From a virus: DNA of 40,066 nucleotides. Positions within the stretch are counted from its first letter, which is position 1, and each line of letters begins with the position of its first letter. Location: the UHGV virus genome UHGV-0132701; one strand, 5' to 3'. Under the pieces are notes generated by a model. That model had not been told where the DNA came from and searched no databases. It worked only from the letters and a program-made list of their open reading frames with translations. Positions 1 through 37,699 of the stretch are shown here, one piece after another. Both the position numbers and the translations under genes were made by a program.

Positions 1-176
1 CTGCAGGGGACACCATTTATCAGTTCGCTCCCATCCGCACCAGTCCGCAAAATCCCCTGAATATCAAGCCTTCCGTATATTCACGGTTCGTCATGGTTCG
101 CGTCAGATCGTTGACAGCCGCACACCATGACGGGTAAAAAGTGGATAAAATAATTTTACCCACCGGATTTTTACCC

Positions 177-1334
177 ATGCTCACCGTTAAGCAGATTGAA
201 GCAGCAAAGCCGAAAGAAAAACCATACCGCCTTCTCGATGGTAATGGCCTGTACCTTTATGTCCCTGTATCAGGGAAAAAGGTATGGCAGCTTCGCTACA
301 AGATTGACGGTAAGGAGAAAATCCTGACCGTCGGAAAATATCCGCTTATGACTTTGCAGGAGGCAAGGGATAAAGCATGGACCGCGAGGAAAGACATCTC
401 GGTTGGTATCGATCCGGTAAAAGCGAAAAAGGCTTCGTCTAACAACAATTCCTTTAGCGCCATTTACAAGGAATGGTACGAGCACAAGAAGCAAGTCTGG
501 TCAGTAGGCTATGCAAATGAACTTGCAAAAATGTTTGATGACGACATTTTACCTATCATCGGCGGCCTTGAAATTCAGGATATTGAGCCGATGCAACTGC
601 TGGAAGTAATCCGCAGATTTGAAGATCGCGGTGCAATGGAGCGAGCAAATAAAGCCCGCAGAAGATGCGGCGAGGTTTTCCGTTACGCTATTGTCACCGG
701 AAGGGCTAAATATAACCCGGCACCTGACCTTGCTGACGCCATGAAGGGATACCGCAAGAAGAACTTCCCGTTTCTTCCAGCAGACCATATCCCTGCATTT
801 AACAAAGCACTGACAACATTTTCAGGAAGTATCGTATCGCTCATTGCGACCAAAGTTTTACGCTACACAGCCCTAAGAACGAAAGAGCTTCGTTCCATGC
901 AATGGAAGAACGTCGATTTTGAAAACAGGATTATCACTATCGACGCCAGTGTGATGAAGGGACGCAAAATTCATGTGGTTCCTATGTCAGATCAGGTGAT
1001 TGAACTTCTCACTACGCTAAGCTCAATCACTAAACCAGTGTCAGAGTTTGTTTTTGCCGGGCGCAACGATAAGAAGAAGCCAATTTGCGAGAACGCTGTA
1101 CTACTTGTGATCAAACAAATCGGCTATGAAGGTCTGGAAAGCGGTCACGGATTCAGGCATGAATTCAGCACGATTATGAACGAGCACGAATGGCCTGCTG
1201 ACGCTATTGAAGTGCAACTGGCACATGCCAACGGCGGATCTGTGCGTGGGATTTACAACCATGCTCAGTATCTCGATAAGCGCAGAGAAATGATGCAGTG
1301 GTGGGCGGACTATCTAGACGGCAAGGTGGCGTAA
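177..1334 (+). CDS. intS: Tyrosine recombinase, P4-type phage integrase (IntS-like); ATG at 177 preferred over GTG at 141
   Basis: N-terminus MLTVKQIEAAKPKEKPYRLLDGNGLYL matches the arm-binding domain of P4-family integrases; C-terminal catalytic region has HGFRHEF and a GIYNHAQY tyrosine motif. Length 385 aa and sequence agree with my recollection of E. coli K-12 IntS (CPS-53, argW-associated); symbol from recall, not verified. Confidence 0.85.
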   Translation: MLTVKQIEAAKPKEKPYRLLDGNGLYLYVPVSGKKVWQLRYKIDGKEKILTVGKYPLMTLQEARDKAWTARKDISVGIDPVKAKKASSNNNSFSAIYKEWYEHKKQVWSVGYANELAKMFDDDILPIIGGLEIQDIEPMQLLEVIRRFEDRGAMERANKARRRCGEVFRYAIVTGRAKYNPAPDLADAMKGYRKKNFPFLPADHIPAFNKALTTFSGSIVSLIATKVLRYTALRTKELRSMQWKNVDFENRIITIDASVMKGRKIHVVPMSDQVIELLTTLSSITKPVSEFVFAGRNDKKKPICENAVLLVIKQIGYEGLESGHGFRHEFSTIMNEHEWPADAIEVQLAHANGGSVRGIYNHAQYLDKRREMMQWWADYLDGKVA

Positions 1335-1343
1335 TGCCACCCA

Positions 1344-1661
1344 TCACACCACCCTGTCGTCTTCGATCACACTGTTGATGAAGTACGTCACACACCACAT
1401 CACTTCCACCTCTTCCGCAGCAGCCCCCTCTATCGCTTCACCATCATCCGTAATTAACGCCCTACCCATGACCCTGGCAAACTGTGTCCTGCCACCGATG
1501 AGTATTAGCAGAACCTGATTCTGTACCAGCCTGGTGCACGGTTCGATAACGGCAAAGCCGGATGATGTTTCGAGGATGCGGCTGTGCATGCCGATCCCGC
1601 AGATACGCTCCGGTGTTAACCGCTGCTCTACGTAGTCTCCCGCCGGTGAAGGAAAGCCCAT
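1344..1661 (-). CDS. Hypothetical small protein (105 aa), acidic C-terminus, second gene of overlapping pair
   Basis: Six-frame ORF, translationally coupled to the upstream 82-aa ORF, convergent with the integrase gene. Confidence 0.4.
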   Translation of the reverse strand: MGFPSPAGDYVEQRLTPERICGIGMHSRILETSSGFAVIEPCTRLVQNQVLLILIGGRTQFARVMGRALITDDGEAIEGAAAEEVEVMWCVTYFINSVIEDDRVV

Positions 1662-1909
1662 CAGTGAACCCTCCCCATGTTGCGCAGGATCCAGTAGTGA
1701 TTGTCGGTTCCGTCAGTTGTCTTGTCGGTGAAGTCGGGCTGATAGCGCTCTATCCACTCGTTGGCGTCGGCCCGGCTGAAATGCCAGTGGACCTTTGCCA
1801 GCTCGCGGATAAAGTCTTCTGTGCGTAAGCACCTGTAGCCCTTGGGGTTTAGCTGTATTGCGGCCACAAATGAGGCGTGAATGTCGTGACTGCGGGGCAT
1901 GATCTGCAC
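1661..1909 (-). CDS. Hypothetical small protein (82 aa), first gene of an overlapping two-gene cassette
   Basis: Six-frame ORF; its stop overlaps the start of the downstream 105-aa ORF (ATGA-type overlap at 1661). No recognisable motif. The opposite-strand ORF 1562..1828 looks low-complexity and less likely real. Confidence 0.4.
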   Translation of the reverse strand: MQIMPRSHDIHASFVAAIQLNPKGYRCLRTEDFIRELAKVHWHFSRADANEWIERYQPDFTDKTTDGTDNHYWILRNMGRVH

Positions 1910-2076
1910 TCCTTTTACCTGTTTTTATATACAGTAGTTTTAAAGTAGATTCAGATCAAGATGGCTAGGCCTATCAATGGAGCGACCATGAGATTTAGCA
2001 GTTTGCGAACGCCGCTCCTCCCTCAAGCGAAACCACCGTGATATATTTACGCCACACACACTATAAGGATCTTAAG

Positions 2077-3258
2077 ATGAAAGTTGCTGTTTTGATGATG
2101 CAAAAGGATGAGTACCGGCTTCTTGAGCCATGGATACTGCATCATGCTGAGCTTTTTGGCCTTGAAAATTTATACGTCTACGATAACGGGTCGGCAGATG
2201 AGCGATGCCTTAACGTTCTGAAGGAATATTCGGGAAAAGGGATGAATGTCGTTTATGACAGAAGCACCTTTGATGATTTCAATACCAGACATATCTACTT
2301 CGTAGACAAATACGAAGAATTAAAGAATTCTCATGGCTATGATTTTATGATGCCACTTGATTGTGATGAGTTTGTTGGCGTTGAGTTTTCAAAAGGCAAG
2401 GTGTCACTATCAAAAAATGATGTGTCGAATGAATTATCAAAATATATAGAAACCGATGCTACATTTAAAATTAAATATACATATGGCAACCACCCGCTTA
2501 ACCCAAAAGAATTTGTGCTAAGACCTAAACCTGAGAAAGTGTTCTTTCCTAAATCAAGAATAACTGCTCTGGGGAATGGTTTCCATCGCGGTGAAGTTGA
2601 GTCAGGACAACAGGTTGATACTGATATCATTTACCTTCACTTCCATCATAAAAACTATGATGACTATATCGCCAGCGCCCGTAATAAACTGGAAGGTCTT
2701 GTTGACGTTAATGATATTGAGGCTCTGAAGGCATTCAAAGGGGCGGGTCACCATTTAGTTAAAAAGTTCCTGATGACTCAGACCGAGTATTACGATATGC
2801 ATGCGGCTTCAAAGTCTATCAACCCGTCTAAGTTCTTTGTTATGGATGGCGTTTATGAATACCTGAAGGGTATAGGGCTGGATCTGGAGCAAACATTAAC
2901 TGTTGAACATGATGAAAGTCTAATAACATGGCATGGTTATGTAGACAAGGTGAGAGAAGATGATGGGTCATGCGTCTTCACGGGGTGGTGCTCTCCAAGC
3001 CTGAACGTTAATCAAGAGTTTTTTTTCCTGCGAGTAGGTCATGAAATACTCCCAGGATTCCTGGAGGGGAAAATACAGCGCTCAGATGTCGTAGCTAAAT
3101 TCCCTGATTACAATCTCCAGTGTGGTTTCTCTGTAAGATTCTACGGGGTAACAAAGGGCTCTTTGCAGCGCAATGAGTGGGAGTTTCACGTTTCTGCTGG
3201 TCACAAAGGTACTGGCTCAAAGCTAAACAGAAAGAAAAACGAATCATACTTCCAGTAA
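2077..3258 (+). CDS. GT-A fold (family 2-like) glycosyltransferase with about 150-aa C-terminal extension of unknown function; candidate lysogenic-conversion enzyme
   Basis: Motifs VAVLMMQKDE...LEPWILHH...LYVYDNGSADE and a DxD-like MPLDCDEF typical of GT-A nucleotide-sugar transferases. Markedly AT-rich relative to flanking DNA. RBS aaggat before the ATG at 2077 (in-frame ATG also at 2038). No obvious transmembrane segments. Confidence 0.6.
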   Translation: MKVAVLMMQKDEYRLLEPWILHHAELFGLENLYVYDNGSADERCLNVLKEYSGKGMNVVYDRSTFDDFNTRHIYFVDKYEELKNSHGYDFMMPLDCDEFVGVEFSKGKVSLSKNDVSNELSKYIETDATFKIKYTYGNHPLNPKEFVLRPKPEKVFFPKSRITALGNGFHRGEVESGQQVDTDIIYLHFHHKNYDDYIASARNKLEGLVDVNDIEALKAFKGAGHHLVKKFLMTQTEYYDMHAASKSINPSKFFVMDGVYEYLKGIGLDLEQTLTVEHDESLITWHGYVDKVREDDGSCVFTGWCSPSLNVNQEFFFLRVGHEILPGFLEGKIQRSDVVAKFPDYNLQCGFSVRFYGVTKGSLQRNEWEFHVSAGHKGTGSKLNRKKNESYFQ

Positions 3259-3263
3259 AAGAA

Positions 3264-3284
3264 GGCGGGAAATCCCGCCTTTTA
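3264..3284. terminator. Bidirectional rho-independent terminator between the glycosyltransferase gene and the convergent late operon
   Basis: GGCGGG-aaat-CCCGCC hairpin flanked by an A-run upstream and a T-run downstream. Confidence 0.6.
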
Positions 3285-3402
3285 CTTTCTCAACCTTATA
3301 GCATCGAATGCTTCCCGTTAGCAGTCAATTGTCGCATAGGGCAGTTCTAATTTCGCATAATTATAACACTGCTCGAAGATATTAGGGCCATTCAGATCGT
3401 AA

Positions 3403-3696
3403 TCACACTCCGTTGCCAACAACCTCCGCATTTGGTTCAACTGCATCGAACGCAATACACGCGGCGGCATATAGTGCGTCTATTGCAGACAATGGAAACA
3501 TCGATAATGCGCAGGAATCACGAAACTCGTTCAGATCAGGCTTATTCCCATAGACTTTAACGGCAGTATTTGGTTTAAGATAAAAACCAGCGCTCCACCC
3601 GTTACCGCGCACTTCAACAATGGCAATGCTGTTAATTCCTTTAACCAATACACCGTCAAATTTGAAAGCACCGCTTGCTGTTTTCATTTTAATCAT
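3403..3696 (-). CDS. Hypothetical protein (97 aa), translationally coupled to the 61-aa ORF
   Basis: Start MIKMKTASG preceded by GGAG; overlaps the upstream stop by 8 nt. No recognised domain. Confidence 0.45.
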   Translation of the reverse strand: MIKMKTASGAFKFDGVLVKGINSIAIVEVRGNGWSAGFYLKPNTAVKVYGNKPDLNEFRDSCALSMFPLSAIDALYAAACIAFDAVEPNAEVVGNGV

Positions 3697-3874
3697 TCTC
3701 CGTAACAGTTTTATTGTGAGCAGCATTTAGTGCTCGCTGGAGTGGCTGGTCATTTTCGCGATCTAATTCTGCCTGCAATGCGTTCATAGCCACTGTAAAG
3801 GCAGGAACTTCCTGCCCGGTTAAATTAACTCTCAGCATGAACTGCATGATATTTTGAATAGTTTGCTTATCCAT
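3689..3874 (-). CDS. Hypothetical small protein (61 aa) immediately downstream of the tailspike
   Basis: ORF starts 12 nt after the tailspike stop with an RBS-like aggac; its stop overlaps the start of the next ORF. Confidence 0.45.
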   Translation of the reverse strand: MDKQTIQNIMQFMLRVNLTGQEVPAFTVAMNALQAELDRENDQPLQRALNAAHNKTVTEND

Positions 3875-3886
3875 TTTATTGTCCTG

Positions 3887-5344
3887 TTAAGTTAAACCAA
3901 TTAATCCATGCCCGGTCGAAGCATGTAAGTCCTGAATTAATGCTGCAACTACCTTTGCTAAATCTTCGTGAGTTATTGTTCCAGAGTTAAATGCTGCTCG
4001 GGATACGGTGCCGGTTGGCGAACCCCATCCCGTTCTCCTCTCTGAAATAACTTGATTGCCATTAAGTCGTATTCTTAAGTTGGTGAAATTAGCCCAGTTC
4101 TCAGTCCTGTTGAAACTCAAATATGTTGTATTTGCCGGGCCCGTTCCTACCGTAATTCGTTGATTGTCGCCCAACAAAATAGCGCAATTGTTACTGAACC
4201 CGGATTCAGTTAACGAAAGTCCGACGCGGAAGTTGCCGCTTCTGAAACGAATTCCGTTCGCTGCGTTTGATAAAATGGAACCCTCAAGGCGCATATACTC
4301 GCCATTGCCCACAACAGTGGTGACTTCCGTCGGTGCGACGATAGAGTCACCCCTGAACAACATGCCGGTCCAGATGAAACCGTTTGGCGCATTTAAGCCC
4401 CTGCCAATGTTGATCATGTGGGTTATGCGATTGCTACCGTCAGTGGTAGTGCATACCAGCCCCCTGGTGTTCCCTACATTCTCAGCGCCAACCATCCACC
4501 CAGCGTCCACACTGCATCCATTATTCATGTTGAATTCATGGATAATTGCGGATTTTGCGCCAGTGTTTAATCCTCCTGACCCAGCAGGGCCAGATACAGC
4601 GCCGTAAGACCATCCCCCCCACACTTCTGCATCCGCATGTCTGGCTTCTCCCCGAAAATGCCCTCCTACTAACTGGCCTGTGCCGCCATTATGACGAACG
4701 GCAGATGTCACTGCGGCGCCGTATGCTGATCCTCCTTGTTTCTCGAGATATCCGTAAAAGCAACCCTGTTCCCAGCGAGCTACGCCATCATCACGCGTGG
4801 CGTTGGATTTCTTTTCCACCCATAACACTGGATCCGGAGTATCAGTTAGCGGAATGGAAAATCTTTGGCGCATGGCGTTCGTATATTGAATTGAGCCGGT
4901 ATTGTAAATATTCACGCCGCCTGCATCGGCTCCAGACCAGCCAGTGCCCCCATATAAATTGTTCAGTCCATCTCCAGCGGGGCCAGCCAGGATCAATCGC
5001 AACTGGTCAGGGTCATATTTGAGTACATTCGGGAAATAATGTTGCCGAGCTCCGAAGGAGTCCAAGACCTCCATTGAATGTCCTTGCACGGTTACAAATT
5101 TTGAAACCTTCCCGTTATATACCGGGTAACCAGCAGCGTTAATGATGATTGGTTGCGAAACAGGAACGTGAGAACCGTCTTCATTCTCTACATAAACCTG
5201 AATCTGGTTTTCAGGATTTACCGGGTCAGTGTCAATTTTACCGATATAAATTTTGCCATTGGCTACGGCTTTAAAAGAACGCGCCATAGTGAAGAGTTGC
5301 GAAGGCATGCTTACCACAACATTTGCATTTATTGAATCTGTCAT
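3887..5344 (-). CDS. Tailspike protein: P22 gp9-like N-terminal head-binding domain fused to a divergent receptor-binding domain
   Basis: First ~110 aa ([62 protein letters not shown]...QGHSMEVLD...VLKYDPDQ) closely match the P22 tailspike head-binding domain; the remainder (485 aa total, shorter than P22) is unrelated to the P22 endorhamnosidase as far as I can tell. Confidence 0.9.
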
Positions 5345-5400
5345 TTAATTTGCTCCAGATACAAGGAATCACCGAAGCGTGGCTACGGTGAATTTTGGGC

Positions 5401-5427
5401 ATAAAAAAACCCAGCCGAAGCTGGGTC
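5401..5427 (-). terminator. Rho-independent terminator (minus strand) upstream of the tailspike gene
   Basis: CCCAGC-cgaa-GCTGGG hairpin followed by a T-run on the minus strand. Confidence 0.5.
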
Positions 5428-5534
5428 GTTGCGTTGGTTATCTGTCAGTAGTTATGTACTGAGGGAGGTAATTCTTTATTCTTAAGTCTCATCCATGCGG
5501 AAAGATTCGATTTGGTTAACCATTTTATCTCCAA

Positions 5535-5560
5535 CAAAAAACCCACCTGACGGTGGGTTT
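5535..5560 (-). terminator. Rho-independent terminator directly after the immI-position gene
   Basis: CCCACC-tgac-GGTGGG hairpin followed by a T-run on the minus strand, 6 nt after the stop codon. Confidence 0.55.
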
Positions 5561-5565
5561 CATAA

Positions 5566-6534
5566 TTAGATTTCTGGTTTCATTCTTCCGAAAACCTTTT
5601 CTATTCCTTTTTCGTATTCTTCTCTTGTCTCACTCATCGCTGCGACCCCAAGAAGCTTACCGATATGCTGACGCAAAGCCTTGACACCAATTTCAGAAAG
5701 GAACAGATGCAACTTATCAGATTGTTTTCCGTTCTCGTCTCGGCTGGCTCGAATCTGTTCAAGGATTTTACCTTTACTCTTTGCTAGCGGGGTGTATATC
5801 TGCATGTTGGTTAGCTGCCCAAAACGAATAGGCCGTCCTTTCTCTGGCCTATTCAGGCCGTACAATCGATACCACTCCTCGTATAACTCATCTGGAAATT
5901 CCTTTTCATATTGACGAGCCTCTTCACGAACAAACGCTTTGAACTCGTCAATGACAGCCTGAACTTCTGGGCGATAACCAGCAAGCGCATACGCAACCCC
6001 CTTAATTCCCGCCTTAGCGGAGGCATTAATAAGTCTCTGCGCTGCAGCCGCGGCCTTTAACCGTGATTGTGGTAGATCGTCATTATCTTTGGCTTCTATT
6101 AGTGCCCTACCAATATCAACAATTGCTGTAATGTCATAACCTAACGCTTGATGAACGGTTTTAGACTTCGAAGTAAGTTGAAATTTATAGGTATTTTCCA
6201 TTTTTCGCTGCAATTCTAGATCTCGGTATTTGCTCATATACTGAGCGCCAAGCAGTTGATCTAAATCCCTGGCATGTTCACCAATCCCTAGCAACTGAGA
6301 TAATCCAGTTTTCGTAACAACGACAGTTTTCGACTCGTCATCCAGTACATAACATTCAGCGTCAATGCCAAAATCATCTAAAAAGTTACCACGATGAGTT
6401 GCCCTGAGAATCTTACTTTTCCATCTTGCAGCAGCTGCTTTCTTTGCTATTTCAGAACGCTGCTCTTTAGTCAGCGACTTTGCGCGAGCGATCCCGCCCT
6501 TAGCTTTCCCTTCGCCACTTTTCTTTTCAGTCAT
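5566..6534 (-). CDS. Hypothetical protein (322 aa) at the immI/sieA-ant position between ejection proteins and tailspike; Lys/Ala-rich N-terminus, no transmembrane segment
   Basis: Long ORF with start MTEKKSGEG at 6534 (upstream in-frame codons lack an RBS and cover the promoter motifs). Moderately AT-rich; flanked by its own terminators; synteny with P22 sieA-hkcC-mnt-arc-ant accessory region. Function not recognisable. Confidence 0.6.
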   Translation of the reverse strand: MTEKKSGEGKAKGGIARAKSLTKEQRSEIAKKAAAARWKSKILRATHRGNFLDDFGIDAECYVLDDESKTVVVTKTGLSQLLGIGEHARDLDQLLGAQYMSKYRDLELQRKMENTYKFQLTSKSKTVHQALGYDITAIVDIGRALIEAKDNDDLPQSRLKAAAAAQRLINASAKAGIKGVAYALAGYRPEVQAVIDEFKAFVREEARQYEKEFPDELYEEWYRLYGLNRPEKGRPIRFGQLTNMQIYTPLAKSKGKILEQIRASRDENGKQSDKLHLFLSEIGVKALRQHIGKLLGVAAMSETREEYEKGIEKVFGRMKPEI

Positions 6535-6640
6535 AATGCAAGAACCTTTGTTGTGATGTATGCTTGCATTATATACACTGTACACACATACAAGCAAGCA
6601 TAAAACTAAAACAAAATGCTTGCATTACAACCGCGCTACT
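6534..6640. promoter_or_regulatory. Divergent promoter region with four copies of an ATGCTTGCA(TTA) operator-like motif (two direct, two inverted)
   Basis: ATGCTTGCATTA at 6560-6571 and 6616-6627; reverse-complement partial copies at about 6534-6542 and 6593-6603; lies between the 322-aa gene and a divergent small ORF. Confidence 0.45.
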
Positions 6641-6690
6641 CCAACTACACATTATCATCTGGTATCCTGCGCAAAACTAAGGAGGTTGGT

Positions 6691-6879
6691 GTGAAGAAAA
6701 AATTTGTAAACGTTGCAAAGTGCGCAATTTTTATATTTTTTATGACCTTTTACGGATTTAGTGCCGGAGAAGGTTTCGATCGTGATGCCAATGCATTCAG
6801 TTTCTTTTGTCTGTCTATAGTGGTCATAATTGTATGGGTGGAATTAAAGCAAACATTGTTTCATGTGCTAGGGAAATAA
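6691..6879 (+). CDS. Small hydrophobic protein (62 aa, two predicted membrane helices), GTG start
   Basis: Strong RBS aaggagg 6 nt before GTG; hydrophobic stretches CAIFIFFMTFYGF and FSFFCLSIVVIIVWV; AT-rich; divergent from the 322-aa gene. Confidence 0.4.
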   Translation: MKKKFVNVAKCAIFIFFMTFYGFSAGEGFDRDANAFSFFCLSIVVIIVWVELKQTLFHVLGK

Positions 6880-6896
6880 CCATCCATGGCATTTAG

Positions 6897-9089
6897 TCAC
6901 TGCTGTGTTGCCTCAGTGGCAAGCAGCGGTCTGATGGCATTTGCAGCTTTGCTTAACGCTCTTTCATAAGCTGGCGTTCCAGCTTTAGTGTTTGCCAGAC
7001 GTAAGAGCGCATTCCTAGCCATAGGGCTTTCATAAACCCTCGACATAAGGCCAATCCCTGTTTCCCCAGCCAATAGCGCGCCTCCGGTTTTTAGGTTACC
7101 AATAACCCTTACCAAAGGCGCGAGTGTCATGCCAGTCTTCGTCACAACATTAGCCTCAGATGCTCTTTTGGTAGCATCGAGAATAGATAACATCCCCTCT
7201 ATCTCTTTTCCGTTCTTCCCACCAAATACAGTTTTAAACACCTGACCATTTGCTTGTTTTTGCAGCTTGCCAAGCTCGGTCATCATTTTCTGAGGGCTGT
7301 CACCTACCTTGTCAGCTATTTTGCTGATATATGCCGCCCTTAGCATGTCTTTACCTTTTTGATCGAGTTTCCCGTACAATCGAGCTATATCTGACCCATA
7401 TTGTCCATACACAATGGTATTTACAGCCTCGGGAGTTAAATCTCCTTTGTTTAGAACGTTTTTAAGGCGCGTTTGAGTTGCATGTGTTGCCATTTTTGCA
7501 TAATCAGCTTTTCCCGCTCTCCATGCTGAAGCATCTTTTGGGCTAAGTCCTTTCGCTATAGATTTACTAAGGCTATTGGTTAGCGAGTTGTAGACCCTGT
7601 CGACCATTGTTTGCGACATTGATGGCAGAACTGTACGATCGCCTTTTACGTCAATGCGGAACTGAGTTCTCAGCTTATCAAGTAACTCAAAGGCATCATC
7701 TCCATTTGTTATCTCCTGAATGGCATTCTTATAATCATTAAGCGCAGAAATGGTCTGGGTGTCAGAAACACCTTTAAGTTTCCCAAGTTCGTTTACTGCT
7801 CCGTCGATAGCTCTTATGGCGCCACTTGTATCAACTGGCTTTCCAACCATTCTTCCTGACAGGTTGTTTAGTTTTGACTTGGCTAACGATTTTTCCCTTG
7901 CAACGCCTGACTTTAGACTATCAACGACTACAGATGGATCGTAGTCGCCGTATTTTTCGGTGAAGCGATTAACAAGCTTGGTTCTAGCATCCTGCTGTGC
8001 GGCTCTCATTGGTCCAGTCCCAGCTATGACTCCTTCTGAGTAACCCTGCAGTTGATTGCCAAGTTTTGTTTTTGGAGGAACTACATCCGATGTCATAACT
8101 GGTACATCTGCCGCAGCGGCACGCTTGAGCAATTGCTGATCTGCTGGTGATATTTCGCCACGAACAGCAGTAATTCCACGCCCTATTCCCTTTGCTGCTG
8201 CGGAAAGAACCCCCTGAGCGGCAAGGTTAACTCCGGCATTTTTAGTTGCATTTTGTGCGAAATCGCCTTTCTGATTTGCGGCCTCTGCCAGTGATCCAAT
8301 AGCCATGCTTCCTGCCGTTCCAACTCCTGGAACTAAATACCCGCCAATTGTTTCACCGGCTTGCGCGTAGGGGTCTGTCGGTCTGTCTACTGGACGATAA
8401 ACATCATCCAAAACCTTGGGCCCACCAAGCCCCTGACTGATTGCATTAATCAGACTTGCGCCACCCTGCAATACGTCAAATGGTATGTTTACCAGACCAC
8501 GACCAGCCTGTTCTGCAATTTGCCCTGCACTTTGACCACCAGTGAGCCAATCGCCAGCTTGTTGCATCAATGATGGTTCTTCTTTCTGCTGCTGAGGCGC
8601 TGCCTGTGTACTTTGCTGTACAGGCTGTTGTGTAGCTTGATTCTTCCTAGGGAGGTATTCATCAGCTTGCTGGTTGTGCAGACTCTCCGCATATGCAGTG
8701 GCATCGTCAGGATTGTCGAACATACCAAGATGCTTTCCCGTCCTCATGAAGTTATCAATAGCTTCATCATCAGACATAATGCGACCATCATCACTAACGG
8801 TAGGAATCAGCACCTCTCTACCATCTATATTGGTAGACATGCTCCGCACAGTGCTAATGCTGCCATCAGAGTTTTTAACAACAGGCCGATTGTGAATGTC
8901 AATATTACCCTTCTCTAGCAGACCTCTAGGGTAAGCAGAGTAAAACGCTTGTTTTGCCTGCTCTGCATTTTCTCCGGCTTGCGGGGCAACGACTTCATTG
9001 AAGTATTGTTCCTGAGCCTGCGCTTTTTGTTCTGGTGCTAACGCCTGATACTGTGGAGAGGCGATAACATCTTTCCATGCTTTAGCCAT
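6897..9089 (-). CDS. Ejection (injection) protein, P22 gp16 position
   Basis: 730-aa ORF in conserved synteny (gp14-gp7-gp20-gp16 order) after the tail needle; Gln/Ala-rich linker and Gly-rich segments typical of ejection proteins. Confidence 0.7.
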   Translation of the reverse strand: MAKAWKDVIASPQYQALAPEQKAQAQEQYFNEVVAPQAGENAEQAKQAFYSAYPRGLLEKGNIDIHNRPVVKNSDGSISTVRSMSTNIDGREVLIPTVSDDGRIMSDDEAIDNFMRTGKHLGMFDNPDDATAYAESLHNQQADEYLPRKNQATQQPVQQSTQAAPQQQKEEPSLMQQAGDWLTGGQSAGQIAEQAGRGLVNIPFDVLQGGASLINAISQGLGGPKVLDDVYRPVDRPTDPYAQAGETIGGYLVPGVGTAGSMAIGSLAEAANQKGDFAQNATKNAGVNLAAQGVLSAAAKGIGRGITAVRGEISPADQQLLKRAAAADVPVMTSDVVPPKTKLGNQLQGYSEGVIAGTGPMRAAQQDARTKLVNRFTEKYGDYDPSVVVDSLKSGVAREKSLAKSKLNNLSGRMVGKPVDTSGAIRAIDGAVNELGKLKGVSDTQTISALNDYKNAIQEITNGDDAFELLDKLRTQFRIDVKGDRTVLPSMSQTMVDRVYNSLTNSLSKSIAKGLSPKDASAWRAGKADYAKMATHATQTRLKNVLNKGDLTPEAVNTIVYGQYGSDIARLYGKLDQKGKDMLRAAYISKIADKVGDSPQKMMTELGKLQKQANGQVFKTVFGGKNGKEIEGMLSILDATKRASEANVVTKTGMTLAPLVRVIGNLKTGGALLAGETGIGLMSRVYESPMARNALLRLANTKAGTPAYERALSKAANAIRPLLATEATQQ

Positions 9090-10384
9090 TAATCACCCCA
9101 TAGTGAAGAAAAGTTATTGCCAGCAGGAGATTGTTGTCCTGGCGTATTCTGCACCGGCTCCTGATAATCAAACTGTTTTTTAACAGTGATCAATTTGCTT
9201 TCAAGCTGATTTCTAATCTTTCCGATAGAGTCACGAAAAGCCTTTTCACTCATTTTTGGACTTAGAGCACCAACCGCATCGGATAATTTTTTACCCTCAG
9301 CATCTGAAAGAGCCCCCATCCCCTTCAGGGACTGCACCATAGGGAGGAAAGTTTGAGCTTTAAAGGTATCTAGCCTTGCTTCAAAGTTAGCCGCATCGGA
9401 TCCAGGAACTGTCGTAAACGCTGAGCGAATGCCTACTGCTTTTGAAAGGCCGGGGCTTTGCTCTATCTCGTTGAGAGAATCAAGCGCAGTGCTGAACGTA
9501 TCAACAGCGCCCTGAGCGGCGGCCTGTCTGTCCGCGCGGGCTATGTCAGCCTTTTGCCGAACATCTGCCTGTTTCTGCTTTAACTCTTCAAGCTTTAACT
9601 GATTGCTTTCTCTGGCTATCTGTCTGTCCAGAGCCTTTTCTTGTAATTCTGCTCTTTGTATTTCGCGGGAAAGAGCAGCATTCTGTGCACTGATGTTCTG
9701 TCCACGTATCTGGATGTCCTGACCTCGAGCTGTTAGTGCTTCTCCGGCCTGATTGCTGCGGATTGTCTCTGCCAGCCTGCCTCGGTCAATCTCACGACCA
9801 GCAATCTTGTCCTGAACATTGAAGTAATCATTAGGACCAAGTGCAGCCATTCCAAGGTGATCAACAAACTCACCAAATCCTGAAGGATTCTGCTGATACA
9901 TCTGAGCAACGTTATTAGGGTCAACACCGACGCGAGTCAGTTCCTTGGCGTTGTTTTGCAGCCATGATTGCATTGCTTCTGGAGACGAGGCCGCAAGGCG
10001 TGCGCCAGCCGCTAAGGTGCCGATAGAATTACGCTGATCTTCATCAATGAATCCCATGCCTTTACGAACGGATTCAATCTGTTCTGGATATTGAGTAGCC
10101 AACTGACGCAAAGCACCGCGATCACCAGACGCATAAGCATTAGCGTATGCCTGCTGAAATTCTTTCTGCCGCTGAGCCTGCTTTTCCTGCTGAAACACCC
10201 CCGCAATACCTGAAAGGCCTTGCAAAGCAGTCAGCCCAACATTGTTAGCGCCTGAACGCTCAATATCATTGTTCTGCCTGATAAGCTGAAGCGTATTGCC
10301 GATGTCATTTACGCTCGGAGCGTTTGAGTTGACGCCGCCGATACCAGCCAACAATCCGCCGTTTGTTCCTTGCCAAGTAGCCAT
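9089..10384 (-). CDS. Ejection protein, P22 gp20 position
   Basis: 431-aa ORF, coiled-coil-rich, stop/start overlap with neighbours; synteny. Confidence 0.7.
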   Translation of the reverse strand: MATWQGTNGGLLAGIGGVNSNAPSVNDIGNTLQLIRQNNDIERSGANNVGLTALQGLSGIAGVFQQEKQAQRQKEFQQAYANAYASGDRGALRQLATQYPEQIESVRKGMGFIDEDQRNSIGTLAAGARLAASSPEAMQSWLQNNAKELTRVGVDPNNVAQMYQQNPSGFGEFVDHLGMAALGPNDYFNVQDKIAGREIDRGRLAETIRSNQAGEALTARGQDIQIRGQNISAQNAALSREIQRAELQEKALDRQIARESNQLKLEELKQKQADVRQKADIARADRQAAAQGAVDTFSTALDSLNEIEQSPGLSKAVGIRSAFTTVPGSDAANFEARLDTFKAQTFLPMVQSLKGMGALSDAEGKKLSDAVGALSPKMSEKAFRDSIGKIRNQLESKLITVKKQFDYQEPVQNTPGQQSPAGNNFSSLWGD

Positions 10385-10393
10385 GATTACCCC

Positions 10394-11086
10394 TTAAAAC
10401 AACGAGCCAAGCAATCCGATACCAGCACCAATGCCAGCGCCCCAAGGCGTTGATGTTCCCAAAAGGCTGGCAAGACCTGCACCGGCAATCGCACCAGACG
10501 TGCCACCGCTAATTGCAGTCTGAAGACTTGATGGTTTATTGGCATTAGCAGCGGCAAGTGCTGCGCTTTGCTGTGCAATGCTGCTCATGTTGTTGGCGTA
10601 TGTCTGCCCAGCGTTTGCCTGACCTTGCAGCGCACCAAGCCCAACGTTTGCCAGATTGTTGTAATTGCTCATCTGATTTGATAACCAAGACTGACCGAGT
10701 GTCGGCGCGATCGTAGCCAGTTGATTGCTTGTGGCTGTCGAACCAAGTCCACCCGTCGCCTCCGCAGCAGCAAGACTCTGGTAACGAGCCTGACCTGCAA
10801 GGTCTTTATACTGCTGAGAGTTGTAATACTGATTAAGTGCCTGCCCCTGACCTTCTAAACTGGAAATGTTCTGAAGCTGGTTAACATACTTCTCCGCAAG
10901 CGGCGTGAACTGAGCAAGGTTTTTCATGATCGTCTGCCACTGCTGATTTTGCAGGTCTGCGGCATACTTCTGAGCTTCTGCTGCATACTTTGCGCTTTTA
11001 TCAGAGCTGCCACCTTTCCCGCCTTTTTCAGGGCAATAAGGTTCCTCGCCGCGCAGTTTTCTGCCCAGCTTAAATGCATATAACAT
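10394..11086 (-). CDS. Ejection protein, P22 gp7 position
   Basis: 230-aa ORF with Gly/Ala-rich C-terminus; size and position match P22 gp7. Confidence 0.7.
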   Translation of the reverse strand: MLYAFKLGRKLRGEEPYCPEKGGKGGSSDKSAKYAAEAQKYAADLQNQQWQTIMKNLAQFTPLAEKYVNQLQNISSLEGQGQALNQYYNSQQYKDLAGQARYQSLAAAEATGGLGSTATSNQLATIAPTLGQSWLSNQMSNYNNLANVGLGALQGQANAGQTYANNMSSIAQQSAALAAANANKPSSLQTAISGGTSGAIAGAGLASLLGTSTPWGAGIGAGIGLLGSLF

Positions 11087-11088
11087 GG

Positions 11089-11547
11089 CTATCTCCCGTG
11101 ATTCAGGAAGTCGATTAGTTCTTCGCGTGTGGCGCTGTAAAACGTCACGTCATCCACGCCTTTGAAGTATTTCTTGATGGTTCCTACACGCTTAAGGCCA
11201 ATCATTGCGCAGTACATCTGCCCGTGGCGGAATTTGCGTGCAGCGAACGATGTGACGCACTGAACGGTGGTGTTAGTCAGAATGTATCGCCAGAACGCCA
11301 GCCCGATTTCCTTGCTGAATCCGCGAATCTCTGGCAGGTACATGGCGTGGCAATCGAATGTAAGCGGCTGAATCTCCTGATAGTAAACAATGCCGCCGAA
11401 CTGCCCGTGCACGTTCACCTCAAAGTAACGGCAATCAGGTTTGTAGTCGTATCCATCGCCGTTGTTGCTACCGGCGATAATGTCAGGGTGATTTCCGACT
11501 GCTTCTATCAGGTCGATGTTTCGCGTTGGTTTGAACTGAATCATCAC
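11089..11547 (-). CDS. Virion assembly protein, P22 gp14 position
   Basis: 152-aa ORF between tail needle and gp7-like genes; synteny. Confidence 0.6.
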
Positions 11548-12497
11548 TGCTCCGCGATTATCTTGATGGTTGTGGCAGTAAACGCCGCTCCATTCGACTG
11601 AATGGTTAACGTGCTGCCATTTGTGGCAAGAAAGCCGTCTTTATCCACGCTGAAGAACGTAGCTAACAGGATGTTGTCGGTTGTTGTCACCGTATTACGA
11701 CTGCTAACCAACGTGTCAGGAACAGAACCGGAAAAGGTTAGCTGCATTGACCTGTTGGCGGTTCCGCTGGGCCACGTCCCGACGATCGACAGCTTGAAGA
11801 ACAAGGTTTTGTTCTCGTTGAACACAACCATCTTGTTGTTAACGGTGTCGAAGAATGGTGCCAACGTTCCGGATGACGGCGTGAGCGTTTTCAGTAGGCT
11901 AACAAGGTTGGTAGGCGCTGTCGGGATGGTTACTGATACGCCAGAGTAAACAACCTCTGACTTCTTGCGAGTAGTGGCATACTCAAGCGCAGATATTCTT
12001 GTAGAGTGATCACCAACTGTGCTTTGTAGCGTTGAAATACTTCCCTCTGCCGCTGTGAGCCTGGTATCAAGTGCGTCGATATCGGTTTTATTCTGAGTTA
12101 TTCGCGCATCATGGTTTGCTAACTCAGATTCATTGGCAGCAATTCGCGTCTCGTGATCAGCCAGCTCTGTTTCAGCAGCCGTAATCCTTGTTTCATGATC
12201 TGCAAGAGTGCTTTCCGCTGTTGCGATTCTATGTTCATGATTGACGAGAGTTGCTTCAGCAGCAGCAATTCTGGATTCATGGTCTGCAAGGGTGGCATCC
12301 TGCTCATCATTCTTCACCTGTGCATCATAAGCCCCCTTCCCTGCTTCGTTGGCCTTGTTAGCCACGTTACCAACATCAGCACCCTGTGCAATAACGTAAA
12401 GCAGATACGACTGCGAGAAGATATTGCGTGGAAGTATTGATGTATCGAGCCGCGTCGCCTGGATGATTACTGGCTCATTGAGATTCGAATCAGCCAT
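11544..12497 (-). CDS. Tail needle (P22 gp26 family) with extended C-terminal knob
   Basis: Repeated heptad pattern ([53 protein letters not shown]...) indicating a trimeric coiled coil; located directly after gp10. Confidence 0.8.
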
Positions 12498-13915
12498 TAC
12501 TCAATCCTTATCTGGCAGCCAGAAAGAGTGACAGGTGACTTTGTGATAACGCGCAATTTGAAGCCAACATTTTTCCTGATGCGCCCTACTCGCTTCCACA
12601 AAACGCGTTTGTCGTAAACGAACGGTTCATTCTGCTCAATCATCTGCTCACGCCCGTAATTGATGCCGTCAGTGGTTGCAGAGAGAAAAAGGCGGTCAGC
12701 ATACTGCGCAACGCCAGTTGACGATTCAACCTCAAGGTCGAACACTCTGGCGTTATCCGCTTTGAACAGTGGAGTAAACAGCAGGTGTTCCTGTTGCTTG
12801 TCGTACTGGCTGCTGATGTCGAATTGCAATTTCCCGGTCACGGACTCCAGCTTATCGCCGCACGTTATCTGATTGCCTTCGTAAATGAAGTCGATAGCGC
12901 GGTACACATCGTCATACAGGCCTGTTTTCAACACACACCATTGCGGACCATTGGCGCTTGAAGATGCGTCGTAAACAAGAACATGGCGCGGAAGATGGAT
13001 AATCAGCAGCTCATGCGCATCAAATCGCAGAGACTCCATCACGCCATCAGCCAGTTCATCAGCAGTGTAGGAGCGGAGGATTTTCTCAATGCTCGCGCTG
13101 GCGATTGGTGATACCTGACCGGAGCCGATAATGTATACAGACGGCGCACCCGTTGCCGGATTGCTGATAAACGCATAGGAATCAGCAAACGGCGTTTTGC
13201 AGTAAGTTCCGGCGATGCCTTTTTGCACCATCAGTGATGGCTGTGCGACATACAAAGCAGCACCAACGGTGGTTGCGCCAGTCAGGGAGAAATATTCAAT
13301 CGTCGATGAACCAAAGCAGACGATGAAGTCTCGCCATGTTCCGATGCCGATGATGCCGTCAGGCTGAGACTCTGCACGATATTGTGCGCTGTATCGGTCA
13401 GGGTGCGATTCGTCTTCAAGGTCAGTGATAAACCATGAATCAGTTCCGTCTTTTGACCACGCATAACGCCCACGTAAGCGCGTAATGTCACGAACCGAAC
13501 CTAACTCATACTGCGTGAATCCGCTGTCTGTAGGCCAGTTTGAGACTGTTTTAACCGTGCCATCATAGCGATACTCGACCAGTTGACCATTAACACCTAC
13601 CGCCTGTGATGTCCGACCATGCGCCATTGATACACGACCACTTCCGGCAACGTCACCGACTTCACTTTCTCCTTTGTACAGCTTGCCACCGCAAACGCGA
13701 TAAACAGCATTCTGCGCCATGTTGTACTCGACACCGCGCGATACACCATTCACATCAGAACGTTTGGCAATGCCCGGGAATGAGCGAAGATATCCGCTGC
13801 TGTTGAGTATTTCTTTGGGTGTAGCCAGCATATTCACTGGCAGATAGTCGATGTAGTCGGCGTTTCGGAAATCTTTGCCGACACCTTTCATAAGCGGAAG
13901 TTGCTGAATCGGCAT
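12497..13915 (-). CDS. Tail accessory/head-completion protein, P22 gp10-like
   Basis: 472 aa, same length as P22 gp10; synteny between gp4 and tail needle. Confidence 0.85.
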
Positions 13916-14415
13916 TATTCGCTCCCGTTATCGCAAGGTTCCTTTCGGTGGAAGTAATTCCAACCATTCCACTTCGCCAACTGGTTACCACTACCAACAG
14001 GCATACGGTTTGGATAACCGGATTTACATTTAGCGGCTTTTGCTCTGTCCATTGCAGACAGTTTGACGAGTCGCTCTTTCCCGTATCTGGCAGTGGTTAT
14101 AAGTTTTGCAGACGCTTCCAGCGCATAATCTGGAGCAATGCGGCAGGCAAGGTTGAAAATGACGGCATTGATAGCGTTATTTGATAAACCGTGTTCATCG
14201 CCTGGATCCGGAGCGACATCGGCATCAGCGAAAATGTAGCCAACGTTGATACCAGGTGACACATCACCGCCAAGCCATTCAGCCATCATCATTTCAAGGT
14301 CGTTGACCCCGTCTTCCATAGACTGCGGTTCGACATCGGTTAACGTGGCATTTGATGCAACACCGAGCTTACGTAATGCTGCAAGGACTAAATCACCCTT
14401 CGTTGTCAGGTTCAT
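13915..14415 (-). CDS. Tail accessory protein, P22 gp4-like (start at MNLTTKGDL)
   Basis: 166 aa from the internal Met, matching P22 gp4 length and its [27 protein letters not shown]-terminal pattern. Confidence 0.8.
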
Positions 14416-14623
14416 CTGCTGCCGCCTTAGGTTTTCGACCAGGCTTTTTACGCTGTTTTTCTTCTGGCTCTGGCTCTGCAACATCCTTCAAAAGGTCATC
14501 AGGATGTGAAAACCAACCAGCATCCAGATATTCCTGAAGCTCTTCTGCTTTCACGATTTCAAAGTCGTAGCCAACGCCTTTCCACTTCTTCATGTCGCCA
14601 TGACGAAAGATCATGTGTGTCAT
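14393..14623 (-). CDS. Small hypothetical protein (76 aa) between coat and gp4, Lys/Pro-rich C-terminus
   Basis: ORF with RBS ggagacaagc before the ATG, directly after the coat-gene terminator hairpin. Confidence 0.4.
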
Positions 14624-14635
14624 GCTTGTCTCCAG

Positions 14636-14660
14636 ATAAAAAAGGGAGCCGAAGCTCCCT
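14636..14660 (-). terminator. Hairpin terminator/attenuator after the coat gene
   Basis: GGGAGC-cgaa-GCTCCC hairpin with a T-run on the minus strand; same cgaa tetraloop architecture as the hairpin at 5401-5427. Confidence 0.45.
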
Positions 14661-14667
14661 CTGGTTA

Positions 14668-15963
14668 TCACGCAGTCTGGTTAGGCAGACCAACACCAAT
14701 TGCCTCTGGTCGTACAGCACATGCTGAATACCACACAGCAATACGGCACTTACCAGACAGCGTGTTGATATCACCCTGCGTTGCGAAGATGCCGTTAACA
14801 CCAATACCAGGAATGCTGAAGGAAGACGTTTTCATGCCAGCAAACAGTTCATGGGTTACCGGGATCGGCTGAGACAGCAGGCGGATTGAGTCATCAGCCC
14901 AGAACACGTTAGCGGTGGTTGTTGCCACGTTCAGAACGTTTACCGGAGTGGCATCAGCAAGAGAGGTGTTTACATTAGCGTAAGCCTTCTCTTCTTTTGT
15001 CAGTGAAGCGTCATCAAGCGCAATCGGCTTCGGCGTGATTTCGATGTGAGTACCATCGATCACACGGGTGATTGAGAAAGTCGCATCATCAGTCAGCACG
15101 TTCTTCGCCATCTGAGACAGGAATTTCACACCAGTGAAGCTGATTTTGTCGCCGCGCTTAAATCCGGTGGTGGAGGATATGGTCACCGTTGCAACACGGT
15201 TGTCGACGTTCTCTTTGTTACCATCGGTATCAAGGGTGTATGCCTGCGGCTTAAACTTCTGCGCACCAGAAACAGTTACACCAGTAGCGGTTGACTTGGT
15301 AACTGCAGGAAGTTTCGGTGAGCGAAGAATTTCATCAAAGCCAGCAATCTGACGCTGAATAGTACCGTTGCGATAAGCTTCTTCAGGAACGCGCCCAAAG
15401 ATGTCACCATCTACCAGGTTGCGGCCTGCTTTGCGGTAATCGTCAGGGTTCAGGAAGTAACTGATGCCCATGTCGCGGTTGAGTTCGCGGGAGAACATCA
15501 GGCGCTCTGCATCAGACACAAAATCCCAGCCAGACAGGCCAGTAGATGGACCAATTGCGCGGGTATCGTGAACAACAAGCGAGCCCATTTCAGTTGCCTG
15601 TTTGGCAATCGCTGACTCAATGTTATTCGCCAGTTTTTTGGCAGATGCCTGGATGCGGCGACGGTAAGAACGCTCATCACGCAGGTCATCTGCACGAAGC
15701 TCGAAGAAATCGTTATCCGGATCACCCATGTTGCATTTCACGGAGAGTTCCAGAATCCCAGTAGCGTTGCCAGTTAAATCCCAGCCAGTCTGAGTTGGCG
15801 CTTCCTGCTCAACAGGCATCCACACGGTGTTGCTTGAACGTTGCATGGATTCTGCCGGAGGGGTGTATTTTGTCACTTTGGACGCCATTGGCGTCAGGTT
15901 CTGGACGGTTTCGATGATTTCATCGATAGCGTAAGTAACTAACTGCCCTTCTTTGAGAGTCAT
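14668..15963 (-). CDS. Major capsid (coat) protein, P22 gp5-like
   Basis: 431 aa; near-identical to P22 coat over most of its length as recalled ([20 protein letters not shown]...[14 protein letters not shown]...[29 protein letters not shown]...). Confidence 0.95.
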
Positions 15964-16030
15964 ATATTGAATACCTTACTTTCTTTATGTGCTATACTAT
16001 TGTTATATCAACATATAGCGCATTAGGGTT

Positions 16031-16552
16031 ATGAGCATGGAACTGAATGAATACTTCGAATACCGCGATGGTTCTTTGGTTTGGAAAGCCAGAAGCTCTG
16101 AATTTTTCAACAACAAAAAGAATCGCAACTATCACAACGTTTGGAATGCAAAACACGCTGGGAAAGTTGCTGGTCTTTTAGAAAGCAATGGATATATCCG
16201 CATAAGAATTAACGGCATTAAGTGGCTAGCACACCGCATCGTATGGGTAATGTTTAACGGAGATATTCCAGAAGGCATGGAAATTGACCATATAAATGGG
16301 ATTCGCCACGACAACAGAATTGAAAATCTTCGTCTTGTGAAAAAATCAGCAAACCAAAGGAATAGAATCAAACTATCTAAAAATAACTCCAGCGGAATAT
16401 CTGGAGTTTACTTTTGCAACACGCGGAAAAGATGGATCGCTCATAAGCGACTGCTTAATGCAAGAGTGCAAAAAGTATGTTCTTCATTCGAAGAGGCGAA
16501 AGAAGTAATCAGAAAGTTTGACGAGGAAAACAACATCACGATATCGAAATAA
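16031..16552 (+). CDS. HNH-family homing endonuclease with AP2-type DNA-binding region, free-standing insertion
   Basis: HNH motif IDHINGIRHDNRIENLRLV...N; AP2-like GVYF...RWIA; AT-rich; opposite strand to, and wedged between, the scaffold and coat genes. Confidence 0.8.
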   Translation: MSMELNEYFEYRDGSLVWKARSSEFFNNKKNRNYHNVWNAKHAGKVAGLLESNGYIRIRINGIKWLAHRIVWVMFNGDIPEGMEIDHINGIRHDNRIENLRLVKKSANQRNRIKLSKNNSSGISGVYFCNTRKRWIAHKRLLNARVQKVCSSFEEAKEVIRKFDEENNITISK

Positions 16553-17464: not shown

Positions 17465-17477
17465 GGTTAACTCTCTC

Positions 17478-21609: not shown

Positions 21610-21703
21610 ATTGATTATTTCCCTTCTGCTTGCTTATCCCATTCATCGCGGAATTTGGATGGGTTGTCGAAGCCCTGAGAGCCTGAACAAACTTTGATTA
21701 CCA

Positions 21704-22271: not shown

Positions 22272-22272
22272 A

Positions 22273-23085: not shown

Positions 23086-23122
23086 GTATTGCTCCTGTTT
23101 TTTTTTGTTTTTCATCGCCCGA

Positions 23123-33499: not shown

Positions 33500-33530
33500 C
33501 AGCCTCACCACTCTAAAACACACAACAATA

Positions 33531-33559: not shown

Positions 33560-33624
33560 CCAAAATATAAACCCATTAAATACAAAGCGTTATAAAAAAC
33601 TAATTATATTTAGAACATTTTGTA

Positions 33625-37686: not shown

Positions 37687-37699
37687 TCAGGAGAAAATC

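Follow-up and report, generated by a model that had tools for sequence, protein, structure and literature searches.

The viral genome UHGV-0132701, analysed here as a single-strand stretch of 40,066 nucleotides (nt) referred to as the window, almost certainly represents one P22-like (Lederbergvirus) temperate phage genome in prophage order, equipped with the known IntS/TorI recombination module that targets the tRNA gene argW. The original prediction, derived from reading the sequence, had placed an IntS-type integrase at the end opposite N and the recombination genes, with cargo between the integrase and the tail genes. Both points proved right: int spans positions 177-1334, while N lies at 34718-34990 and the gene for a Rad52-type recombinase at 36472-37179, and the cargo open reading frames (ORFs), at 1344-3258, are followed by a tailspike gene at 3887-5344 on the minus strand. 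Two explanations had been offered for this layout, a single prophage with the integrase at its tail end, as in the CPS-53 remnant of Escherichia coli K-12, or two juxtaposed elements. The first is the one that holds, and the layout is common to K-12, HK620, Sf6, CUS-3, Kapi1 and the E. coli PK12 prophage. The features of the argW module found in the window, or on a contig identical to it (L011), are the att core, an IntS-type integrase, a promoter within attL, the gene for the recombination directionality factor (RDF) and a P arm at the far end, and the attB site. This reading is built on the anatomy of the sequence, its identity to characterised systems, a second core on the identical contig and the existence of the empty site, all of them observed directly.

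The left end: att core, argW and integrase

Two features define the left end of the element:

1-16, plus strand: att core (attL core in the prophage), an exact match to the cores annotated in HK620 and Sf6 and the sole exact copy in the window
177-1334, plus strand: int, encoding an IntS-type tyrosine integrase of 385 residues (Pfam Arm-DNA-bind_3, Phage_int_M and Phage_integrase)

The sequence CTGCAGGGGACACCAT, at window positions 1-16, exactly matches the att core of the recombination module of Sf6, HK620, CUS-3 and KplE1; this 16-mer is an 'attP core' feature in the HK620 and Sf6 records and lies at the annotated attL end of CUS-3. Its first 15 positions, CTGCAGGGGACACCA, correspond to the tRNA-Arg(CCU) gene argW at its 3' end, CCA end included. 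The earlier statement that neither an att core nor a tRNA fragment could be identified was, therefore, mistaken. ARAGORN called no tRNA in the window, in which just 15 nt of the gene are present, and the fragment was recognised through its match to annotated genomes. A megablast search with window 1-1400 gave matches in 2,401 of 5,426 complete genomes of E. coli, tRNA-Arg and intS being annotated beneath them, and in strain 980-2 the tRNA has its 3' end at the base matching window position 15. The same end point was reached when ARAGORN was applied to contigs L013, L014 and L015 (the last from GCA_012214065.1), which are 98-99% identical to window 1-5359: the tRNA-Arg(cct) called in them stops at window-equivalent 15.

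The integrase is 97-98% identical to HK620 Int, Sf6 gp16, CUS-3 Int and K-12 IntS (98% to the latter), and its catalytic residues R234, H324, R327, H350 and Y360 are invariant. The start codon was set at ATG 177 and not at the in-frame GTG 141, because the latter lies upstream of the mapped transcription start. The gene is transcribed away from the core, which is found directly upstream of it. P22 and lambda have their attP downstream of int; there, int and xis remain together at one prophage end and are co-transcribed from PL. A module of this type, with xis directly upstream of int and on the same att side, was considered and discarded: the core is directly upstream of int, no xis or HTH_17/Exc-type ORF was found beside int, and the RDF gene is 40 kb away.

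The right end and the empty site

A look-up of the exact protein encoded by the glycosyltransferase gene described below showed the window to be the leading 40,066 nt of a metagenome scaffold 40,570 nt in length, SADK15-1_SAMN03295849_METAG-scaffold_138 (L017; ENA ERZ28630532), whose first 9,258 nt are identical to window 1-9258. A further contig, L011, was found through the last complete gene of the window (39206-39955) and is 100.000% identical to window 33206-40066, that is, over 6,861 nt. Beyond this point it carries the features that complete the module:

40056-40066, plus strand: first 11 nt of a 55-residue ORF, cut by the window end and complete on L011
40281-40481 (window-equivalent, on L011), plus strand: torI, 66 residues, 100% identical to K-12 TorI, HK620 HkaC and Sf6 gp18
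40476-40495 (window-equivalent, on L011): two P-arm GGGTAAAA sites, read from the L011 sequence
40555-40570 (window-equivalent, on L011): attR core, an exact copy of the 16-bp core, followed by a K-12 attR-type host flank into dsdC

On L011, the last base of the core falls at window-equivalent 40,570, and the scaffold from which the window was taken is exactly that long; the limits of the element are 1 to about 40,570. The flanking tRNA and direct repeats that had been suggested as a check are, thus, the argW end and core at window 1-16 and the second core on L011. Inspection of the DNA beyond 40066, also proposed at the time for an integrase and an excisionase, gave a divided answer: the RDF gene torI is there on the identical contig, a second integrase is not, and attR and host DNA follow. 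As for the comparison with an empty site, an attB of 716 nt was reconstructed from the left host flank and argW (L013), the core and the right flank (L011). It was contiguous in 911 of the 5,426 complete genomes, and the top matches were 100% identical, in a single piece and annotated as yfdC, tRNA-Arg and dsdC, so that the intact yfdC-argW-dsdC site was recovered.

Several points weigh against the reading of the window as one argW prophage. Both torI and attR are located outside the window, which stops about 500 nt (504 nt of scaffold) before the second core. The right end of the element, with torI, the P arm and attR, would be as described if the 100% identical contig, which comes from another sample, and the exact agreement at 40,570 are taken as guides. 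The window begins at the first base of the core, so that integrated (attL) and circular (attP) forms look alike in it. Finally, a consensus promoter scan missed PintS, the int promoter discussed in the next section, whose -10 box (TAAAAA) lacks the final T.

The third of these points bears on a different account, according to which the scaffold would be a free, circular phage genome, or a mixture of forms, broken by the assembler at the att core; the separation of int would then be a linearisation artefact, with position 1 joined to 40,554 as attP. The scaffold starts at the first core base, ends (judged by its size) at the last one and contains no host DNA; a de Bruijn graph would be expected to branch at the core if attP coexisted with attL and attR, and unstable lysogeny has been reported for a relative, Kapi1 (bioRxiv 10.1101/2021.04.09.439263). 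Nevertheless, a purely circular genome should be broken at an arbitrary point and not at the core, and near-identical copies are integrated at argW, with left junctions in L013 and L015 at 99.4% identity and the right junction in L011 at 100%. This account is possible but unlikely, and it leaves the architecture unchanged, since the circular map of HK620 and Sf6 is also torI-attP-int-(moron)-tailspike. The core-to-core ends of the scaffold suggest that the sample contained both integrated and excised forms, or both lysogens and non-lysogens.

A separate observation concerns the region in front of torI. A 16-nt exact copy of argW tRNA positions 46-61 (the T-arm), TTGCAGGTTCGATTCC, is found in all the relatives examined, 20 nt upstream of the start of torI/hkaC: at 7041-7056 in L011 (window-equivalent about 40246-40261), 2692-2707 in both L002 and L004, 10976-10991 in L006 and 8617-8632 in L005. 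The att core (tRNA positions 61-75) is found 293 nt beyond this copy, past torI and the P arm; in the phage, the final 30 nt of the tRNA are thus present as two pieces, with the RDF gene between them. The copy overlaps the cII site and a 'phage integration' promoter annotated in HK620, and its chance expectation, by our own estimate, is about 1e-5. This copy may be either a relic or functional; it could reflect the way in which the RDF gene came to be inside an originally 30-nt segment of tRNA identity, and it may now be part of a cII-dependent promoter.

The 249-residue ea gene at window 39206-39955 was also found in two contigs (L007 and L009) that use other integration modules. In L007, the identical ea gene ends the early-left operon, and an HTH_17 RDF and an integrase are placed beside proA/proB-like genes. 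In L009, the early-left operon likewise closes with this ea gene, and a 55-residue ORF, a lambda-type Exc and an Arm-DNA-bind_1 integrase follow. In both, xis and int are adjacent at one end, in direct contrast to the argW module, which is split between ends.

The int promoter, TorI sites and arm-type repeats

The attL region of K-12 was mapped experimentally by Panis et al. in 2010, including the intS promoter by primer extension (PMC2951348), and the att site positions used here were taken from that work. Window 1-200 is identical to K-12 attL at 193 of 200 positions, without insertions or deletions, and all seven differences fall outside the mapped motifs. The KplE1 coordinates (PMC2951348) were transferred through the alignment by a constant offset, whose validity is supported by the fact that both mapped start bases (T and A) land on T146 and A147 and that the 28-nt TorI blocks fit exactly. 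The sites obtained in this way are listed below.

19-47, plus strand: putative TorI (RDF) block I1-I2, with GTTCG at 23-27 and GTCCG at 43-47, an assignment made from the homologous KplE1 attL, motifs unchanged
82-110, plus strand: putative TorI block I3-I5, with GTTCG at 86-90, GTTCG at 96-100 and GATCG at 106-110, transferred from KplE1
111-147, plus strand: predicted promoter PintS inside attL, with -35 TTGACA at 111-116, -10 TAAAAA at 135-140 and starts at T146/A147, from the KplE1 mapping
132-176, no strand assigned: putative IntS arm-type (P') sites, GGGTAAAA at 132-139 (overlapping the -10 box), GGATAAAA at 143-150 and TTTTACCC at 154-161 and 169-176

Conservation of the first 200 nt is about 99% when HK620, Sf6, CUS-3 and two prophages of E. 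coli are compared. The first 120 nt contain five pentamers of the TorI type, when 0.17 would be expected, and in KplE1 it is I4 and I5 that mediate the repression of intS by TorI (PMC2951348). In the HK620 record, the 'prophage excision' promoter is the equivalent of window 111-160, and two 'attP' repeat regions are the equivalents of 131-152 and 152-177. A search for the integration host factor (IHF) consensus in window 1-200 yielded one weak match with one mismatch, at 135-147 on the minus strand, which was not relied on.

The repeats near the start of int, noticed from the beginning as TTTTACCC/GGGTAAAAA and proposed to be regulatory or arm-type sites, deserve closer consideration. They comprise GGGTAAAA(A) at 132-140, TTTTACCC at 154-161 and 169-176, and GGATAAAA, with one mismatch, at 143-150. 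The proposal was borne out, given that they coincide with the 'attP' repeats and the 'prophage excision' promoter of HK620 and with the KplE1 P' sites over the -10 box of PintS. In KplE1, the arm-type sites share a conserved TAAA and P'1 overlaps the -10 box (PMC2951348). The octamer is present four times in the whole window against an expectation of 0.8. It could be argued that the repeats are A+T-rich promoter sequence arisen by chance and devoid of any role in recombination, in view of the copy that overlaps the -10 box and of the KplE1 experiments, in which single mutations in P' sites did not relieve repression by IntS (PMC2951348). Such a coincidence is very improbable. Three exact octamer copies within 50 bp were obtained in none of 2000 dinucleotide-preserving shuffles, and the octamers are invariant in the six relatives compared (6/6). 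In addition, two more GGGTAAAA copies are found on the other (P) arm near torI, one overlapping the torI stop codon and the other just past it; the integrase has an arm-binding domain, and the repeats are labelled attP repeats in HK620 and treated as IntS arm-type sites by Panis et al. (PMC2951348). The repeats at 132-176 are, as judged from this sequence evidence, P' arm-type sites that overlap the int promoter.

One element or two

The proposal of two juxtaposed elements would turn window 1-3400 into the remnant of an argW island with int and cargo, abutting a separate P22-like prophage with its own int-xis pair and att site past 40066. The block formed by int and the cargo is indeed mosaic, with a GC content unlike that of its neighbours; the same block adjoins a lambda-like GpJ tail module in contig L016, and tandem argW elements do exist, as in L014, where another integrase lies beyond a full tRNA-Arg copy. 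Yet neither a separate int-xis pair nor an att junction between 1335 and 3400 was found. When a second core was sought in the whole window with up to three mismatches, only chance-level matches at 4465 and 16879 were obtained; exact matches to the tRNA of at least 11 nt elsewhere in the window were 11-12 nt long, also at chance level, and none of either kind fell in 1335-3400. A repeat search in window 1-6000 gave no flanking repeats or insertion sequence ends around the cargo, and no other ORF of at least 200 residues in the window has integrase domains. Past 40066, L011 continues with the RDF gene torI, the P arm, the attR core and host dsdC, and with no further int. In the true tandem case, L014, a complete tRNA/att copy separates the elements and is placed to the left of int, not between int and the tail genes. 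Furthermore, int, cargo and tailspike are also contiguous in Sf6, CUS-3, PK12 and L013-L015, and the window encodes a complete P22-like gene set. Two juxtaposed elements are, thus, extremely improbable.

The stretch at 2500-3939 of L014 itself contains, on the minus strand, a different Arm-DNA-bind_3 integrase; to its right is a full-length but variant tRNA-Arg(CCT) (GTCCCC... instead of GTCCTC...), and this variant copy directly precedes the int of a window-type prophage.

Why int and the RDF gene lie at opposite ends

The position of int in a single argW prophage is explained as follows. In this module, attP is located between the RDF gene (torI, equivalent to hkaC and to Sf6 gene 18) and int, in a manner unlike that of lambda or P22. 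Because attP lies between the two genes, strand exchange within the 16-bp core splits the pair, and int and the RDF gene end up at opposite ends of the prophage. int remains at attL, transcribed away from the tRNA and next to the moron slot and the tailspike gene, and the RDF gene remains at attR, where it closes the early-left operon. Since early-left transcription no longer reaches it, int would depend on its own sigma-70 promoter in the P' arm (-35 at 111-116, -10 at 135-140). Since PintS overlaps the IntS arm-type sites and abuts the TorI sites, int expression would be kept low by both IntS and TorI. Excision would require IntS, IHF and TorI, the latter supplied from the other end after induction. 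With KplE1 and HK620 substrates, excision needs IntS, TorI and IHF, and IntS and TorI repress int (Panis et al., PMC2951348, PMC3509656). On the strength of the near-identity to KplE1, promoter use, repression and site binding in the window's element would be expected to follow the same pattern.

None of this is new: where the integrase lies, what the repeats are and which slot the cargo occupies had all been described before. The arrangement was reportedly described for HK620 in 2001 and for Sf6 in 2004, and the first mapping of the KplE1 att sites is said to be that of Panis, Mejean and Ansaldi in 2007 (JBC). A biochemical dissection of the arrangement in KplE1 extended from 2007 to 2012 (PMC2951348, PMC3509656), and it was stated again for Kapi1 in 2021 (bioRxiv 10.1101/2021.04.09.439263). 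The odd placement of the integrase is a textbook consequence of an attP located between xis and int, and the answer to the question, as it was posed, matters little. About 44% of the complete E. coli genomes carry this integrase beside argW. The practical value lies in annotation, namely the exact attL core, the promoter, the RDF sites, the arm-type sites and the limits of the element. Residual interest is confined to the uncharacterised cargo, that is, a rare family-2 glycosyltransferase (GT2), present in 3 of the 5,426 complete genomes, and a UmuD'-like pair.

Comparison with known systems

The closest experimental reference is KplE1 (CPS-53) of E. coli K-12, which shares with the window's element the 16-bp core, the argW target and, as read on L011, an identical TorI and the same attR host flank. 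Its order is argW-intS-gtrABS-tail fibre remnants, and then torI-attR, with the integrase beside O-antigen-modification cargo and tail genes, as in the window. However, KplE1 is a 10-kb defective remnant without immunity or structural genes, whereas the window's element is a full-length 40.6-kb P22-like genome, and its cargo is gtrABS instead of the UmuD'-like pair and soluble GT2 of the window.

Among complete phages, the Lederbergviruses HK620 (AF335538) and Sf6 (AF547987) present the early-left genes, hkaC or gene 18 (RDF), the attP core, the excision promoter, the attP repeats, int, a moron in some cases and the tailspike gene, in the same order as the window's element. The spacer between core and int is about 99% conserved with the window. 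Differences are found in the moron slot, occupied by oac in Sf6 and without visible cargo in HK620 (the stretch downstream of its int was not displayed), and in the receptor-binding domains of the tailspikes, whose DNA is homologous in the head-binding part only; mosaicism also affects many early and nin genes. The record of the CUS-3 prophage of E. coli K1 RS218 (CP000711) is written in the same prophage order, with the attL core, int, neuO, tailspike and ant. Its cargo is the phase-variable O-acetyltransferase gene neuO and its tailspike an endosialidase, both unlike those of the window. The prophage of E. coli PK12 reads tRNA-Arg-intS-two small ORFs-GT2-tail and head-lysis-replication-immunity-N-recombination-ea-TorI-core, and has two exact cores 38.9 kb apart. 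Kapi1 (MT813197) integrates at argW, with the same core plus one base, and has a seroconversion cargo, assigned to no particular gene, near int; its cargo genes differ from those of the window, hyp24 being acyltransferase-like. It was reported that in Kapi1 attP lies between int and xis, so that both genes are found at opposite prophage ends, and that the same occurs in Sf6, HK620 and KplE1 (bioRxiv 10.1101/2021.04.09.439263).

More distant systems share only parts of this organisation. P22 and lambda resemble the window in their lambdoid order of genes, in having a tyrosine integrase and in the closeness of conversion genes to the tailspike gene on the circular map. The integrase of satellite P4 is of the same class, with an Arm-DNA-bind_3 domain; P4 targets another tRNA and is not known to have close sequence similarity. 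It is cited as the other case on record in which an integrase is down-regulated twice, by Int and by the RDF, and its RDF, Vis, acts on RNA (Panis et al., PMC2951348).

The cargo between int and the tailspike gene

Homology to Sf6, HK620, CUS-3 and K-12 ends at about 1309-1335, at the 3' end of int, and is followed by the cargo:

1344-1661, minus strand: ORF of 105 residues, UmuD'/HumD-like (PHROG 3469 at 2e-44)
1661-1900, minus strand: ORF of 79 residues (82 from GTG 1909), overlapping the start of the 105-residue ORF (PHROG 3893 at 3e-39)
2077-3258, plus strand: gene for a soluble GT2 with a GT-A fold, 393 residues, including a C-terminal beta domain (weak Pfam match to Glyco_tranf_2_4, 35 bits)
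3262-3281, no strand assigned: bidirectional intrinsic terminator, an 8-bp stem (6 GC pairs) with a run of A on one side and of T on the other, placed where the GT2 gene and the tailspike operon converge

The slot is compositionally mosaic, with a GC content of about 47% in int, 54-57% in the small ORFs and 36-43% in the GT2 gene. It is the same slot that holds oac in Sf6, neuO in CUS-3 and gtrABS in KplE1. The GT2 protein displays invariant DNGS and DCD (DxD) motifs, and its AlphaFold model (pLDDT, a per-residue confidence score, of 88.7) gave as best Foldseek matches TarS, RmlT, TarP and SpsA, which are GT-A enzymes decorating cell-surface polymers; a sequence search of the PDB yielded noise only. 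The family is small and unnamed (34 matches). Its DNA is found in 3 of the 5,426 complete genomes at 86-90% identity, and the exact protein is indexed in 82 blocks of a public collection of draft and metagenome assemblies. The GT2 gene is plausibly a candidate lysogenic-conversion moron, the term 'conversion-type' deriving from its position and modelled fold. This interpretation is based on the slot shared with oac, neuO and gtrABS and on a fold nearest to those of TarS, RmlT and the prophage-encoded TarP. That it might represent a new kind of phage serotype-conversion enzyme, acting on O-antigen or capsule from the cytoplasmic side and not by the Gtr or Oac routes, is a more doubtful idea, which we consider improbable at present.

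Two other identities were examined for the cargo. A known O-antigen conversion cassette (GtrABC, or Oac/acyltransferase_3) was rejected, as those families were not found and the GT2 fold resembles TarS, TarP and RmlT. A defence system was dropped for lack of evidence, PADLOC and NCBIfam being unhelpful. Specifically, the cargo ORFs gave no Gtr or acyltransferase families in Pfam, no PADLOC match and no useful NCBIfam match, Glyco_tranf_2_4 being the only result for GT2.

Regarding the small ORFs, the only part of the 105-residue protein recognisable by sequence is the N-terminal GFPSPAxDYVEQR arm, the UmuD' arm being GFPSPAGDYVEQR; the PHROG is labelled UmuD-like. NCBIfam HumD aligned with its N-terminal 21 residues, below the cut-off, and UmuD/UmuD' entries of the PDB matched residues 2-19 weakly. 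No UmuC-like gene was seen with it. The 79-residue version of its neighbour was called in L013, L014, L016 and L017, and this protein had no match in Pfam, NCBIfam or PADLOC. Several E. coli prophages also have this pair beside intS, and in strain 980-2 it is found in pseudogenised form.

In L016 (1-9272), the block formed by core, int, UmuD'-like pair and GT2 is 98.7% identical to window 1-3411, and joined to it is a lambda-like tail module that includes a GpJ-type protein of 1028 residues. This implies that attL, int and cargo travel together between lambdoid prophages of the podovirus and siphovirus types.

Tailspike, late and early regions

The remainder of the window contains the following genes:

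3403-3874, minus strand: two small ORFs of 61 (3689-3874) and 94 residues (3403-3687), downstream of the tailspike gene, called in L013-L018
3887-5344, minus strand: tailspike gene, 485 residues (short), with a P22-type head-binding domain (Pfam Head_binding at 4e-61, residues 4-114; PHROG tail spike families)
6897-24340, minus strand: P22-like genes for ejection, tail needle, head, packaging and lysis (Pfam P22_gp7, Inj_translocase, Phage_tail_NK, Phage_stabilise, P22_CoatProtein, P22_portal, Terminase_6N/6C, GP3_package)
32798-39955, plus strand: immunity repressor and early-left operon, with a cI-type repressor at 32798-33499, N, the Rad52-type recombinase gene, and Ead/Ea22 and ea genes to 39955

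The Lederbergvirus features recognised by Pfam include the P22-type coat and portal, the gp4/gp10 stabilisation proteins, the tail needle, the gp7/gp20/gp16 ejection proteins and the gp9 head-binding tailspike, and the late region is collinear with the annotated PK12 prophage. The receptor-binding part of the tailspike had no DNA match in the phage collection. At 5566-6879, the place of ant and mnt/arc in relatives, the window carries a gene for a P63C-domain protein of 322-343 residues on the minus strand and a plus-strand ORF of 62-87 residues, the latter with no Arc or Mnt match in Pfam. L013-L015 have an Arc/Mnt-family gene at this place, indicating that the immI-like region has been swapped. 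Lastly, the pair of 61- and 94-residue ORFs is about 75% identical in DNA to two paired hypothetical genes of the 145-150 kb E. coli phages nieznany and tuntematon, and in L016 it comes after a different tail protein, of 540 residues.

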